Notes under the pieces: generated by a model | What the model saw: the letters and a program-made list of their open reading frames with translations, nothing else | What the model was told of the DNA's origin: nothing | Databases searched by the model: none | Translations under genes and position numbers: made by a program | Source: Escherichia phage vB_EcoM_Shinka | Length of the DNA stretch: 64,000 bases | Sequence record: MZ502379.1 | Reading direction: 5' to 3' (one strand) | Shown: positions 21,817-25,792 of the stretch, piece by piece | Position numbering within the stretch: the first letter of the stretch is position 1 | Layout of the letters: each line of letters opens with the position of its first letter

Positions 21817-22398
21817 CTAACCGAGCTTTTTAGTTAATTCATTCCAATGTTTTCTACACAAAGAAACATAAATTTCATCACCAATACAGATTTGATTACC
21901 TTCTTTAACTGGTGTTCCATCTTCCATTAATCGAGCTGTCATAATCGCTTTTTTGCCGCAATGACAAACTGCCTTTAGTTCAATAAGTTTATCTGCAATC
22001 GCTAAAAGTTCTTTAGAACCTTCAAACAATTTTCCAGCGAAATCAGTCCTTAATCCATAAGCCATAACAGGAACATTATATGTATCAACAATTCGACTTA
22101 ATTGATGCACTTGTTCAGTTTTTAAAAACTGAGCTTCATCTACAAATACGCAATGAATATCTTTTTGTGCTTCAGCCCATTTATAGAACTCGAAAATATC
22201 CATATCATCTGTAATAATATTCGCTTCCTGTTTAATTCCAATGCGAGAAACAACTTCACAGACAGAATCGCGAGTATCAATAGCAGGCTTAAGAACTAAT
22301 ACACTCATTCCACGTTCTTTATAATTATGTGCAGCAGTCAAAAGAGAAGCAGATTTTCCAGCATTCATTGCTGCATAAGTAAAAATTAAACTCGCCAT
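21817..22398 (-). CDS. tk: Thymidine kinase (193 aa)
   Basis: P-loop AMNAGKS, conserved VDEAQF and C-terminal zinc-binding cysteines (CHCGKK...CRKH). Confidence 0.9.
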   Translation of the reverse strand: MASLIFTYAAMNAGKSASLLTAAHNYKERGMSVLVLKPAIDTRDSVCEVVSRIGIKQEANIITDDMDIFEFYKWAEAQKDIHCVFVDEAQFLKTEQVHQLSRIVDTYNVPVMAYGLRTDFAGKLFEGSKELLAIADKLIELKAVCHCGKKAIMTARLMEDGTPVKEGNQICIGDEIYVSLCRKHWNELTKKLG

Positions 22399-22407
22399 AT
22401 CACCTTC

Positions 22408-22593
22408 TTAAAGCGTATTCACATAAGCTATTAATTCATTTTCTTTCTTATCAAACCGATCAGCAAATTCTTCCTGCTGTTCGGGAGATAGCGGGCCGTA
22501 TTCATCATAAAAGGTGTTTGCTTCTATATGCTCATCTAGAAGTTCATGGATAAGCTCAAACAATTTATCTTTTTGTTCTTTACTCAGACTCAT
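22408..22593 (-). CDS. Hypothetical small acidic protein (61 aa)
   Basis: ORF immediately upstream of tk. Confidence 0.45.
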   Translation of the reverse strand: MSLSKEQKDKLFELIHELLDEHIEANTFYDEYGPLSPEQQEEFADRFDKKENELIAYVNTL

Positions 22594-22763
22594 ATATTAA
22601 TTTCCAGGAGTTTTAAAATAATTCGCTTTTGCTTAAATATTTCCATAGTTAAATGACCAGTATCTTTTTGACCGATTCCAATGGCAAAACCTTTATTAAC
22701 AGCGAGTTCAATTAAATTATCAAGCTCACGTAACACTTCGTATTGTAACTCAAAACTATTCAT
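22590..22763 (-). CDS. Small hypothetical protein (57 aa), below the ORF track cutoff
   Basis: ATG near 22763 opens MNSFELQYEVLRELDNLIELAVNKGFAIGIGQKDTGHLTMEIFKQKRIILKLLEINI; ATGA overlaps with both neighbours. Confidence 0.3.
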   Translation of the reverse strand: MNSFELQYEVLRELDNLIELAVNKGFAIGIGQKDTGHLTMEIFKQKRIILKLLEINI

Positions 22764-22987
22764 TTTGGTTTACCTTCTTTAACGAAATCAGGATAAGGAT
22801 AAAATCCTGAATAAAATCCTTCACCTTTATGATTGATGCATCCTTTATTAGAACAATAGCACCAATAATCGAAATCACAAGCCATTTCATCATTACATAA
22901 AGCAAAAACAACAGGCCATTTACACTTTTCACAATGGGCATTTTTAAGAATACTAGTTTGGCTCATAACCATGTAACCTTTAAGCAA
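22760..22987 (-). CDS. Cysteine-rich small protein (75 aa, putative metal-binding)
   Basis: Nine cysteines including HCEKCKW and CYCSNKGCINHKG. Confidence 0.45.
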   Translation of the reverse strand: MLKGYMVMSQTSILKNAHCEKCKWPVVFALCNDEMACDFDYWCYCSNKGCINHKGEGFYSGFYPYPDFVKEGKPK

Positions 22988-23175
22988 TATTCTTCTACAT
23001 GTTGTTTACGACCTTTCTTATCAATAAAGGTATATTCAACGAATGTTCCAATGTAGTCTTTATCTACATCATGTGGACTATTAATTGGACATTTAGTACG
23101 GCAAATGCGTTCCCATTGACGAATAATTTCCACTTTGTTTTTAGGATCAAACGGATGTGGGTAATGTACTTTCAT
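22963..23175 (-). CDS. Hypothetical small protein (70 aa)
   Basis: ORF overlapping the macro-domain gene stop. Confidence 0.4.
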   Translation of the reverse strand: MKVHYPHPFDPKNKVEIIRQWERICRTKCPINSPHDVDKDYIGTFVEYTFIDKKGRKQHVEEYCLKVTWL

Positions 23176-23626
23176 AATCCACCACTATTAAATCAATATC
23201 AGGAGTAAACATGTCGATTAATTTAGAAACCTTATCCCAATCGCCGCCAGCAATACCACAACCTATGCGTGGAATGTAAATTACTGGTTTAAACAAAAGG
23301 GTTTCTGCCTGTAGATTTAATTCTATCATGCAGTTTACTAAAGCACCATAATCAAGATTAGGACCTGGTTCGTATTGCGTATACAGGTTATAGCATATAC
23401 CAAAACCATTAGGTTTATGTTTAAAAACAATAGACATATCGCCTAATTTATCACGAGAACCGTACTCAGTAGTGGTTTTATCTATTTCTAAAATTTTGGG
23501 ATAGGCTCTTGCTAATTGACCAGCTACACCTGAACCCATAGTATGAAAACAATTGCACCCGTGCGCAATAATATTACCTTGAAGAAATAGGGCGACAATA
23601 TCGCCCTTGATATATTTTACAATCAT
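23147..23626 (-). CDS. Macro-domain protein (ADP-ribose binding/hydrolase-like, 159 aa)
   Basis: KGDI...IAHGCNCFHTMGSGVAGQLARA and IPRIGCGIAGGDWD follow the macro-domain pattern (GDIT ... NAAN ... GGGV ... and C-terminal G-rich loop). Confidence 0.6.
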   Translation of the reverse strand: MIVKYIKGDIVALFLQGNIIAHGCNCFHTMGSGVAGQLARAYPKILEIDKTTTEYGSRDKLGDMSIVFKHKPNGFGICYNLYTQYEPGPNLDYGALVNCMIELNLQAETLLFKPVIYIPRIGCGIAGGDWDKVSKLIDMFTPDIDLIVVDYESTLPTSV

Positions 23627-23967
23627 CTAGTACTCAATCCTCGATTATAAGAATCTACCAAACGGTCAACCATTGAATGACAAGCGGCTTTATCTTTCTC
23701 CTCCGCAACTGAACATTCTAAGGTATTCCACTTTTTAGCATATCGTTTTAACAATGTATCATTTTTGTATCTGCTTGATTTATCTCTTTCTCCGTCTTTA
23801 TATGCATATATTAATTTCTGCGCAAATTCAGCTTGACATGCTTTATTTTTCCCGCAATAATCCGCTGCAGTACGGTTTACATATTCTCTAATTTCAGTAT
23901 ATGATGATGTATCTGCTAACGCAGAAAATGAAATTAATCCTATACATAAAACCAAAATTTTAGTCAT
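23623..23967 (-). CDS. Secreted hypothetical protein (114 aa, signal peptide)
   Basis: N-terminus MTKILVLCIGLISFSALA is a signal-peptide pattern; four cysteines in the mature part. Confidence 0.5.
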   Translation of the reverse strand: MTKILVLCIGLISFSALADTSSYTEIREYVNRTAADYCGKNKACQAEFAQKLIYAYKDGERDKSSRYKNDTLLKRYAKKWNTLECSVAEEKDKAACHSMVDRLVDSYNRGLSTR

Positions 23968-24512: not shown

Positions 24513-24974
24513 TCATTGAGTTTTAATTACTGCTTTAGAAGCCTTTCCTGGTAAACGACGACTGTTGATAATTGCCATCCTGCATTGAAGTGACGGGTCT
24601 TTGAACTTCTCATTAGGCTTACAAACCGTAAATCCAAGCCAAAGATTTCCATCTGTGATTTCTAAACGTCCAGGACGATATTCAACCCCATCAATAAAAT
24701 CCTCGTCAATGTCAGGACGCGGAGGCATACTCAGGAATTCATTAACTTCTAAAACATGGTCTTTTATTTTATGGAATAATTCAAAAACATATGTCTCATC
24801 AATCTCCCGTTGAATTGCACGATCAAGAAGATGTTGAGAATATTTTAGATGAAACGATGAGACTCCTGCTGCTTTTGATGCCTCACGAATCTCATTGTTA
24901 ATTTGACGAAACTCCGACTCAAAGTGACGACGAAGCTTATTTCGACGGATAAAAACTTCTGTATTGATAGTCAT
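24513..24974 (-). CDS. regB: RegB endoribonuclease (153 aa)
   Basis: 153-aa ORF MTINTEVFIRRNKLRRHFESEF... matching recalled T4 RegB; position after tk. Confidence 0.7.
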   Translation of the reverse strand: MTINTEVFIRRNKLRRHFESEFRQINNEIREASKAAGVSSFHLKYSQHLLDRAIQREIDETYVFELFHKIKDHVLEVNEFLSMPPRPDIDEDFIDGVEYRPGRLEITDGNLWLGFTVCKPNEKFKDPSLQCRMAIINSRRLPGKASKAVIKTQ

Positions 24975-25033
24975 GTTGTTCTCCTCTTAACTGATAGAAA
25001 AATTATACCACAGTCAAGAGGAAAAGTAAACAG

Positions 25034-25354: not shown

Positions 25355-25614
25355 ATACTTGCTTCTTTGAGTTTCGTTTTAGCAATAGTTAACTGATCGA
25401 GGCTTTCGGCGTAATTCTTCGCGAGTTCATCATCTTCACAGCTATCAAATGCTTCCCAGAATTCATCGTATAAAGCGTCAAAGATAAGTCCTAAACGAAC
25501 TTCAGCGTCTTTGATAGCATTCACTTTACCGATTTTCTCTTCAGTATGCGGCTTATAACCTTTAATGTCTTCAATCATATTTGACTTCCTCACCAGTACA
25601 TAAATCGTATTCAA
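25312..25614 (-). CDS. Hypothetical acidic protein (100 aa)
   Basis: ORF in the regB to ip block. Confidence 0.45.
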
Positions 25615-25792
25615 CTAAACGAATAGGTTCATGAATGCCATATCCCTGAACAGAAATTTCTGTAGTAGGATAAATTCCATCAATATCACCCATATTCCAC
25701 GCTTCGTTAAATTGCTGTTCGCCTGAATTACTAAACCACTCGGCGAAAGCATTTAGCACATCTTTAGAACCTTCAATAATTATCTTTGCCAT
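25571..25792 (-). CDS. Hypothetical small protein (73 aa)
   Basis: ORF with start abutting the upstream stop. Confidence 0.4.
   Translation of the reverse strand: MAKIIIEGSKDVLNAFAEWFSNSGEQQFNEAWNMGDIDGIYPTTEISVQGYGIHEPIRLVEYDLCTGEEVKYD

Follow-up and report, generated by a model that had tools for sequence, protein, structure and literature searches.

The tk.4-type gene of Escherichia phage vB_EcoM_Shinka probably encodes a stand-alone TARG1-like (ALC1-class) ADP-ribosyl glycohydrolase, an allele of T4 tk.4/adfM that would reverse the marks left by DarT2 on phage DNA. DarTG defences halt a phage by attaching ADP-ribose to its DNA. This assignment draws on the fold, residue mapping and synteny observed in the 64,000-nucleotide stretch analysed here (record MZ502379.1; hereafter the window) and on a phenotype taken from the literature on the T4/T2 allele. 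We infer that the window allele, 57% identical to that of T4, does the same job, by hydrolysis and specifically on DNA, and we infer the timing of its expression in the same way. The anti-DarTG2 finding is already known in kind from tk.4/adfM of T4, published as a preprint, and the window adds no new kind of system. Its relevance lies in forecasting phage host range on strains that carry DarTG2.

The gene lies between those for thymidine kinase (21817-22398) and RegB (24513-24974). Pfam confirmed both, and likewise vs.1 through its SLT domain and, downstream, two small phage genes that are conserved. It occupies the slot between tk.3 and vs, as in T4, and its product is a stand-alone macrodomain protein of 159 residues (17.5 kDa, pI 5.25). 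The original prediction had placed a macro-domain protein in the tk-regB interval; the reading frame, the motifs it quoted and the confirmed flanking genes are all present, and the macro fold on which it hinged was returned by Pfam, by profile search of the PDB, by AlphaFold2 and by Foldseek. With 33.1 bits (E = 6.2e-8), the match to the Pfam Macro profile (PF01661) exceeds the gathering threshold of 22 and spans positions 2-117 of the 118 in the profile. A PDB search with the single sequence matched BT1257, Poa1p, SCO6735, M. tuberculosis DarG and TARG1, and a search with a family profile built from 41 homologs gave E-values of 2.6e-19 for BT1257, 1.4e-17 for TARG1, 6.4e-16 for SCO6735, 3.9e-14 for Poa1p and 6.7e-12 for M. 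tuberculosis DarG. The AlphaFold2 model, made from the homolog alignment (mean pLDDT 94, pTM 0.88), has the three-layer alpha/beta/alpha macro fold, and Foldseek ranked TARG1, BT1257, Poa1p and DarG at the top, with TARG1 as the best match (E = 1.9e-10, TM 0.72-0.82). In structure the protein is thus nearer to TARG1, DarG, SCO6735/BT1257 and Poa1p than to MacroD or viral Mac1. On these profile and structure matches, the protein belongs to the ALC1-like (TARG1-like) class of macrodomains.

Table 1. Features of the tk.4 region of the window, with coordinates, strand and basis.
Feature	Position	Strand	Basis or remark
tk.4/adfM-type gene	23147..23626	-	ATG-to-stop ORF, 159 codons
First ADP-ribose-binding loop, residues 22-35 (HGCNCFHTMGSGVA)	23522..23563	-	invariant H22, G23, N25, C26, G33, A35
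Catalytic position, residues 80-84 (NLYTQ)	23375..23389	-	profile-to-PDB alignment
Diphosphate-binding loop, residues 119-130 (PRIGCGIAGGDW)	23237..23272	-	profile alignments
Mosaic (allele-replacement) segment	23130..23500		44-68% nucleotide identity to T4, 50-nt identity profile
Overlap of vs stop and tk.4 start, ATGA	23623..23626	-	sequence; same in T4
MotA-box-like middle-promoter motif (TGCTTTAGTAAACTGCATGATAGAAT) inside the tk.4 ORF	23320-23345	-	pattern match
Early-type sigma-70 promoter-like site, TTTACT-17-TATAAT with extended -10 TG	25002..25030	-	consensus match upstream of regB
vs	23623-23967	-	valyl-tRNA synthetase modifier, 96% identical to T4
61-aa ORF	within 22408-22987	-	54% identical to T4 Tk.2
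57-aa ORF, PHROG 3452	within 22408-22987	-	without T4 counterpart
75-aa 'Phage zinc binding domain' protein, PF23895, PHROG 2306	within 22408-22987	-	

The conserved ADP-ribose-binding loops that the original prediction proposed to check were identified, and the residues around the predicted active site are strictly kept. N25 is invariant in all 119 ungapped homolog sequences and occupies the position of the catalytic-site Asn, N27 in SCO6735 (PMC9411070) and N22 in DarG (PMC13309987), while Q84, N80 and Y82 are invariant in 121 of 121 homologs. In the profile-to-PDB alignment the family motif 'nlYtq' falls on 'YLITK' of TARG1 and 'NMIGQ' of BT1257, which places Q84 at the position of the TARG1 catalytic Lys84. 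Its equivalence to SCO6735 Q85 and DarG K80 is transitive, running through TARG1 K84 and the published structural equivalence of SCO6735 Gln85 with TARG1 Lys84 and DarG Lys80 (PMC9411070). A126 is aligned with the TARG1 catalytic Asp125, and the diphosphate loop has the same form as PRIGCGLAGGTW of SCO6735 and PRIGCGLAGGKW of BT1257, without the TARG1-type Asp (GCGLAGGxW).

The presence of Gln84 and Ala126 in place of the TARG1 Lys/Asp pair and the DarG Lys leads us to expect SCO6735-type chemistry; judged by alignment, the reaction should follow the Gln route of SCO6735/BT1257 and not the Lys route of DarG. SCO6735 lacks both the Lys and the Asp of the TARG1/DarG type, yet it outpaces both DarG and TARG1 in taking off the thymidine-linked ADP-ribose made by DarT, and it also rescues E. 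coli exposed to DarT (PMC9411070). Its Q85A variant is inactive and its N27S variant nearly so, and the mechanism proposed for it is water-mediated, with the Gln positioning the distal ribose (PMC9411070).

T4 Tk.4 (NP_049723) lies in the same slot, with the same ATGA overlap with vs, and both proteins fall in PHROG 335. The suggestion that the protein counters DarT-type DNA ADP-ribosylation has been borne out genetically for this T4 gene, which was the sole significant transposon-sequencing hit on a DarTG2 host and whose clean deletion sensitised T4 to DarTG2 (bioRxiv 10.1101/2025.11.20.689424). The same preprint, of November 2025, renamed tk.4 as adfM ('anti-DarT factor Macrodomain'), reported that the predicted structure of Tk.4 resembles the M. 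tuberculosis DarG macrodomain, and described an enzymatic mode of action, with ADP-ribose taken off the DNA, as one that 'seems likely' (bioRxiv 10.1101/2025.11.20.689424). T2 and T4 that lack adfA and adfN stay resistant to DarTG2 (PMC11825919), which fits tk.4/adfM as the DarTG2 counter-factor. T-even phages carry layered anti-DarTG measures, with AdfA and AdfN directed against DarTG1 and Tk.4/AdfM against DarTG2. The published genetics all concern the T4/T2 allele, because the Tk.4 proteins of T2 and T4 are identical (155/155); T2 was accordingly ruled out as a carrier of the window allele. No relevant DarTG2 test of phages with the window allele (Bas35, Bas36) was found in a literature search.

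RefSeq labels T4 tk.4 as 'phosphatase; contains A1pp phosphatase motif', and some genomes already annotate the tk.4-type gene as a macro-domain protein. Taken literally, the legacy label would make the product a Poa1p-type ADP-ribose-1''-phosphate phosphatase that clears away a side product of tRNA splicing or repair. The phenotype found for T4 tk.4 is, however, confined to DarTG2 (bioRxiv 10.1101/2025.11.20.689424). The label itself stems from an era when every macrodomain was named A1pp. In T4, tRNA repair by Pnk and Rnl1 is not known to include a 2'-phosphotransferase step that would give ADP-ribose-1''-phosphate. We regard a phosphatase role as extremely unlikely.

T-even phages encode three ADP-ribosyltransferases (Alt, ModA and ModB), and the editing of such phage-made modifications was the other role originally envisaged for the macrodomain. 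That proposal gained no support, whether the protein is taken to trim the marks of these enzymes or, more broadly, those made by the host. Alt, ModA and ModB form arginine linkages, and arginine-linked ADP-ribose is cleaved by ARH/DraG-type enzymes and is not known as a substrate of TARG1-like macrodomains, which disfavours an eraser of these marks. SCO6735 and TARG1 do also remove glutamate-linked ADP-ribose from protein (PMC9411070), but tk.4 is dispensable on plain K-12 and has only a DarTG2 phenotype in the reported screens (bioRxiv 10.1101/2025.11.20.689424). An eraser of protein ADP-ribosylation is, in our view, highly improbable.

The glycohydrolase reading implies the following course of events. 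The tk.4-type gene would be transcribed with the regB-vs cluster. Once the host DarTG2 system is triggered, DarT2 would put ADP-ribose on the N3 of thymidine in single-stranded phage DNA and so block replication. The macrodomain cleft would hold this ADP-ribose between the HGCNC...GSG loop and the GCGIAGG loop, with N25 and Q84 positioning the distal ribose, and the bond between thymine N3 and ribose C1'' would be hydrolysed by a Gln/Asn-assisted, water-mediated route. Free ADP-ribose and intact thymine would result, leaving the DNA replicable again.

Several points weigh against the glycohydrolase reading. The window protein differs from the genetically tested T4 allele in 43% of its residues, including some in the diphosphate loop, and it lacks the longer, Lys-bearing 'mobile loop'. 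It is acidic (pI 5.25), which is not typical of a DNA-binding enzyme, and the promoter upstream of regB is a consensus match only. In the case of AdfA, another anti-DarT factor, which allele is present is known to make a difference (PMC11825919).

The best T4 match of the window protein is tk.4 (57% over 155 residues, E = 1e-69), whereas the flanking genes are 100% (rI.-1), 100% (rI), 99% (tk), 93% (tk.3), 96% (vs), 99% (vs.1) and 100% (regB) identical to those of T4. An identity of 57% inside flanks that are 93-100% identical marks a mosaic replacement. Along the DNA, the 50-nt identity profile stands at 98-100% as far as roughly 23130, drops to 44-68% across about 23130-23500, rises to 78-84% over 23500-23600 and is back at 98-100% beyond about 23600. 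Along the protein, identity to T4 Tk.4 per 20 residues is 80-90% over the first 40 residues and ranges from 21 to 40% within residues 61-80 and 121-159 (30% for residues 61-80, 21% for residues 141-159). The pattern is that of a cassette-like exchange, one junction of which falls within the gene, just past codon 40 or so.

All 16 invariant positions of the family alignment, N25 and Q84 among them, are nevertheless the same in the two alleles, while the diphosphate loop reads GCGIAGGDW in the window protein and GAGIGKGNW in T4 Tk.4, and the window protein carries four extra C-terminal residues (159 residues against 155). At 23147-23175, tk.4 runs at its 3' end 29 nt into the beginning of tk.3 (22963-23175), compared with 4 nt in T4; the four extra residues and the shifted tk.3 junction mark the downstream edge of the mosaic segment.

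A 1.1-kb stretch around the gene matches 687 phage records, which places the window in a T4-like phage. Many Tequatrovirus genomes are 99.5% identical to it, among them PhiZZ23, teqhal, FriedrichMiescher and FriedrichZschokke, and Bas35 and Bas36 show the same identity here. A protein at least 90% identical to that of the window occurs in 318 records of the phage collection. Most other T-even-like phages have Tk.4 versions about 55-60% identical to it. The anti-DarTG2 gene of T-even phages thus exists as at least two strongly divergent alleles, exchanged as a cassette. Detectable homologs occur in 2,773 of 50,697 phage records (about 5%), spread over Straboviridae, Felixounavirus-, Pakpunavirus- and rV5-like phages and others.

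In one scenario, which we consider rather unlikely, the window allele is no mere drifted copy of T4 AdfM but a functionally distinct anti-ADP-ribosylation factor. An arms race would have led it to acquire the stretch that starts near residue 45 and runs to residue 159 from a different lineage. This exchange may then alter which DarT2 variants are neutralised, possibly through direct toxin binding as with SCO6735, or extend the range to uracil-linked RNA or protein ADP-ribosylation. More widely, the macrodomain taken up by T-even phages would be a Gln-type DNA-repair enzyme with a housekeeping role and not a DarG antitoxin. If so, the 'orphan antitoxin' origin proposed for AdfN would not apply to tk.4.

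A different account would have the protein counter DarT2 mainly by stoichiometric binding and inhibition of the toxin, or by binding together with hydrolysis, with the divergent allele as an adaptation to DarT2 variants. Catalytically dead SCO6735 (Q85A), DarG (K80A) and TARG1 (K84A) all inhibit DarT in vitro, SCO6735 most strongly (PMC9411070), and the exchange of the stretch between about residue 45 and residue 159, with its surroundings almost unchanged, resembles arms-race turnover. The strict conservation of the active site in 121 homologs, among them bacterial stand-alone genes without a recurrent DarT partner, argues instead for selection on catalysis, and the 159-residue protein has no equivalent of the C-terminal DarT-binding domain of DarG. 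Toxin binding as the main mode of action therefore appears improbable to us.

It is very unlikely that the window allele now acts on a different nucleic acid, such as RNA with ADP-ribose at N3 of uridine, and is directed against some defence besides the tested DarTG2. TARG1, DarG and especially SCO6735 do reverse uracil-linked ADP-ribosylation of RNA (PMC13036486), and the window allele is strongly unlike that of T4 outside the catalytic core. The catalytic residues are the same in both alleles, however, and the literature cited here describes no bacterial defence that ADP-ribosylates RNA uracil.

Further variable spots lie close to the gene. Between tk and tk.3 (22408-22987, minus strand) the gene content is unlike that of T4 (Table 1), and no clear ortholog of T4 tk.1 was found within this interval. 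The two extra genes there match RB32ORF110c and RB32ORF111c of T2 by size and position alone. Together, tk.1 to tk.4 make a hyperplastic patch between the conserved tk and vs. At the vs.5 position (25571-25792, minus strand) the window has an ORF of 73 residues compared with 58 in T4, with a local match only (16 of 17 residues); this is another small variable site in a block that is otherwise 95-100% conserved.

The expression of the gene was considered from its sequence context. The ATGA overlap suggests that tk.4 may be translationally coupled to and co-transcribed with vs. A consensus scan found no sigma-70-like or MotA-type promoter directly upstream of tk.4, and the closest site from which a regB-vs.1-vs-tk.4 transcript could plausibly begin is the one upstream of regB; sigma-70-like sites are not enriched in the region (16 found, 18 expected). 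Co-transcription of tk.4 with the early regB-vs cluster can reasonably be presumed. The MotA-box-like motif inside the tk.4 ORF would drive tk.3 and the genes downstream. The window has 14 matches to the pattern TGCTTYA-N11-13-TANNNT, where 2.4 would be expected; the minus (gene) strand carries 12 of these. The vs gene, directly upstream of tk.4, was the T4 gene most depleted in minimal relative to rich medium by HIDEN-SEQ (bioRxiv 10.1101/2025.11.20.689424), which marks it as conditionally important.

A perfect 8-bp palindromic hairpin (AGGGCGATATTGTCGCCCT) lies at 23589-23607, 19-37 nt into the tk.4 coding sequence, where KGDIVAL is encoded. A scan for terminators picked it up on either strand, and it is unchanged in T4. 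It is not significant, with z-scores of -1.8 and -0.6 against shuffled sequences; the stretch is identical in T4, so that no covariation signal is possible.

We collected 80 bacterial loci that carry the nearest cellular relatives (identity 33-42%); Ruegeria, Desulfobacter, Verrucomicrobia, Bacteroidota, Planctomycetota and others are represented. Their ORFs were called and 112 immediate neighbours were scanned against Pfam. Nearly all of the homolog ORFs are 150-180 residues long and stand-alone. Among the 112 neighbours of 79 homologs no recurrent DarT was found in the top 25 Pfam families listed. The commonest neighbour families were aspartate-semialdehyde dehydrogenase (12, mostly in Desulfobacter-type genomes), EamA (4), AraC-type regulators (4), DUF72 (3) and NADAR (2). 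A derivation of the family from DarG antitoxin genes was dropped in view of these varied neighbours, with no recurrent DarT among the 25 most frequent families, and the bacterial relatives resemble SCO6735-like enzymes with a housekeeping role in repair rather than antitoxins.

NADAR is the other known family of DNA de-ADP-ribosylases. The two NADAR-domain neighbours (best E = 2.3e-39) and their macrodomain partners may be a repair module for thymine- and guanine-linked ADP-ribose. A 63-nt blastn match that suggested an inverted piece of tk.4 inside T4 mobD.4 was rejected as an artefact, its subject being the conserved N-terminal motif of a bacterial homolog.

Among characterized macrodomains, the window protein resembles, in its predicted active site, SCO6735 of Streptomyces coelicolor and BT1257 of Bacteroides thetaiotaomicron, stand-alone Gln-type ALC1-like proteins (PDB 5E3B, 2FG1, 2AFC) to which it is 26-29% identical. 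It shares with this subclass the Gln at the catalytic-Lys position and the locking Asn (Q84 and N25). It differs in lacking their hallmark extended mobile loop, which in BT1257 amounts to a six-residue insertion relative to the family profile and in SCO6735 is about five residues longer than in TARG1 or DarG and bears Lys89 and Lys93 (PMC9411070). The authors of the SCO6735 study linked efficient handling of DNA to this Lys-bearing loop (PMC9411070), whereas residues 85-92 of the window protein (YEPGPNLD) contain no Lys. Val25 of SCO6735, for which a role through its backbone carbonyl has been proposed (PMC9411070), corresponds to the invariant Gly23 of the window family by motif register only (H24-V25-x-N27 against H22-G23-C24-N25). 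With the Gln/Asn pair and the GCG[IL]AGGxW loop but no Lys-bearing mobile loop, the T-even proteins thus form a short-loop, Gln-type family of TARG1-like macrodomains.

The DarG2 antitoxin macrodomain (Thermus aquaticus, 5M31/5M3E; M. tuberculosis, 5M3I) uses a catalytic Lys80 where the window protein has Gln. DarG also carries a C-terminal DarT-binding domain within a protein of about 330-400 residues, which the 159-residue window protein does not have. Against DarG models (NCBIfam NF048014, PADLOC DarG), the latter covers only positions 2-142 of 338 and 3-144 of 329, and it scores 27.8 bits on the NCBIfam DarG equivalog (NF048014), for which the cut-off is 250. The phage neighbours of tk.4 are vs and tk.3, with no adjacent DarT. 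The window protein therefore departs from DarG in all four of these defining features (catalytic Lys, DarT-binding domain, DarT neighbour, equivalog score), and the label 'DarG homolog', although true of the fold, would be misleading for the chemistry predicted here. Human TARG1 (C6orf130), which also takes thymidine-linked ADP-ribose off DNA (PMC9411070), has a loop after the catalytic position of the same length as the window family, aligned without gaps, but its Lys84/Asp125 dyad is replaced by Gln84/Ala126 in the window protein.

A functional parallel among phages is gp104 of PhiKZ, a stand-alone chimallivirus macrodomain that counters DarTG2, was independently named AdfM and has been shown biochemically to remove DarT2-made ADP-ribose from DNA (PMC13309987, Cell Rep 2026). 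Unlike the window protein, gp104 is DarG-like (E = 9e-25 to M. tuberculosis DarG; 137.8 bits on the NCBIfam DarG model) and has the Lys motif FPTK, with an Asn/Lys pair of N23 and K78, where the window protein has LYTQ. The two proteins share 37 of 162 residues, with a BLASTP E-value of 1e-3 over 33 residues and an hhalign probability of 96%; the hhalign alignment is out of register around the catalytic strand, and residues were mapped from HMMER profile alignments to TARG1 and BT1257. The name AdfM has thus been given to two non-orthologous proteins, the Gln-type T4 Tk.4 and the Lys-type PhiKZ gp104, and could mislead annotation. The T-even and chimallivirus AdfM proteins belong to different subfamilies and represent independent recruitments against the same defence.
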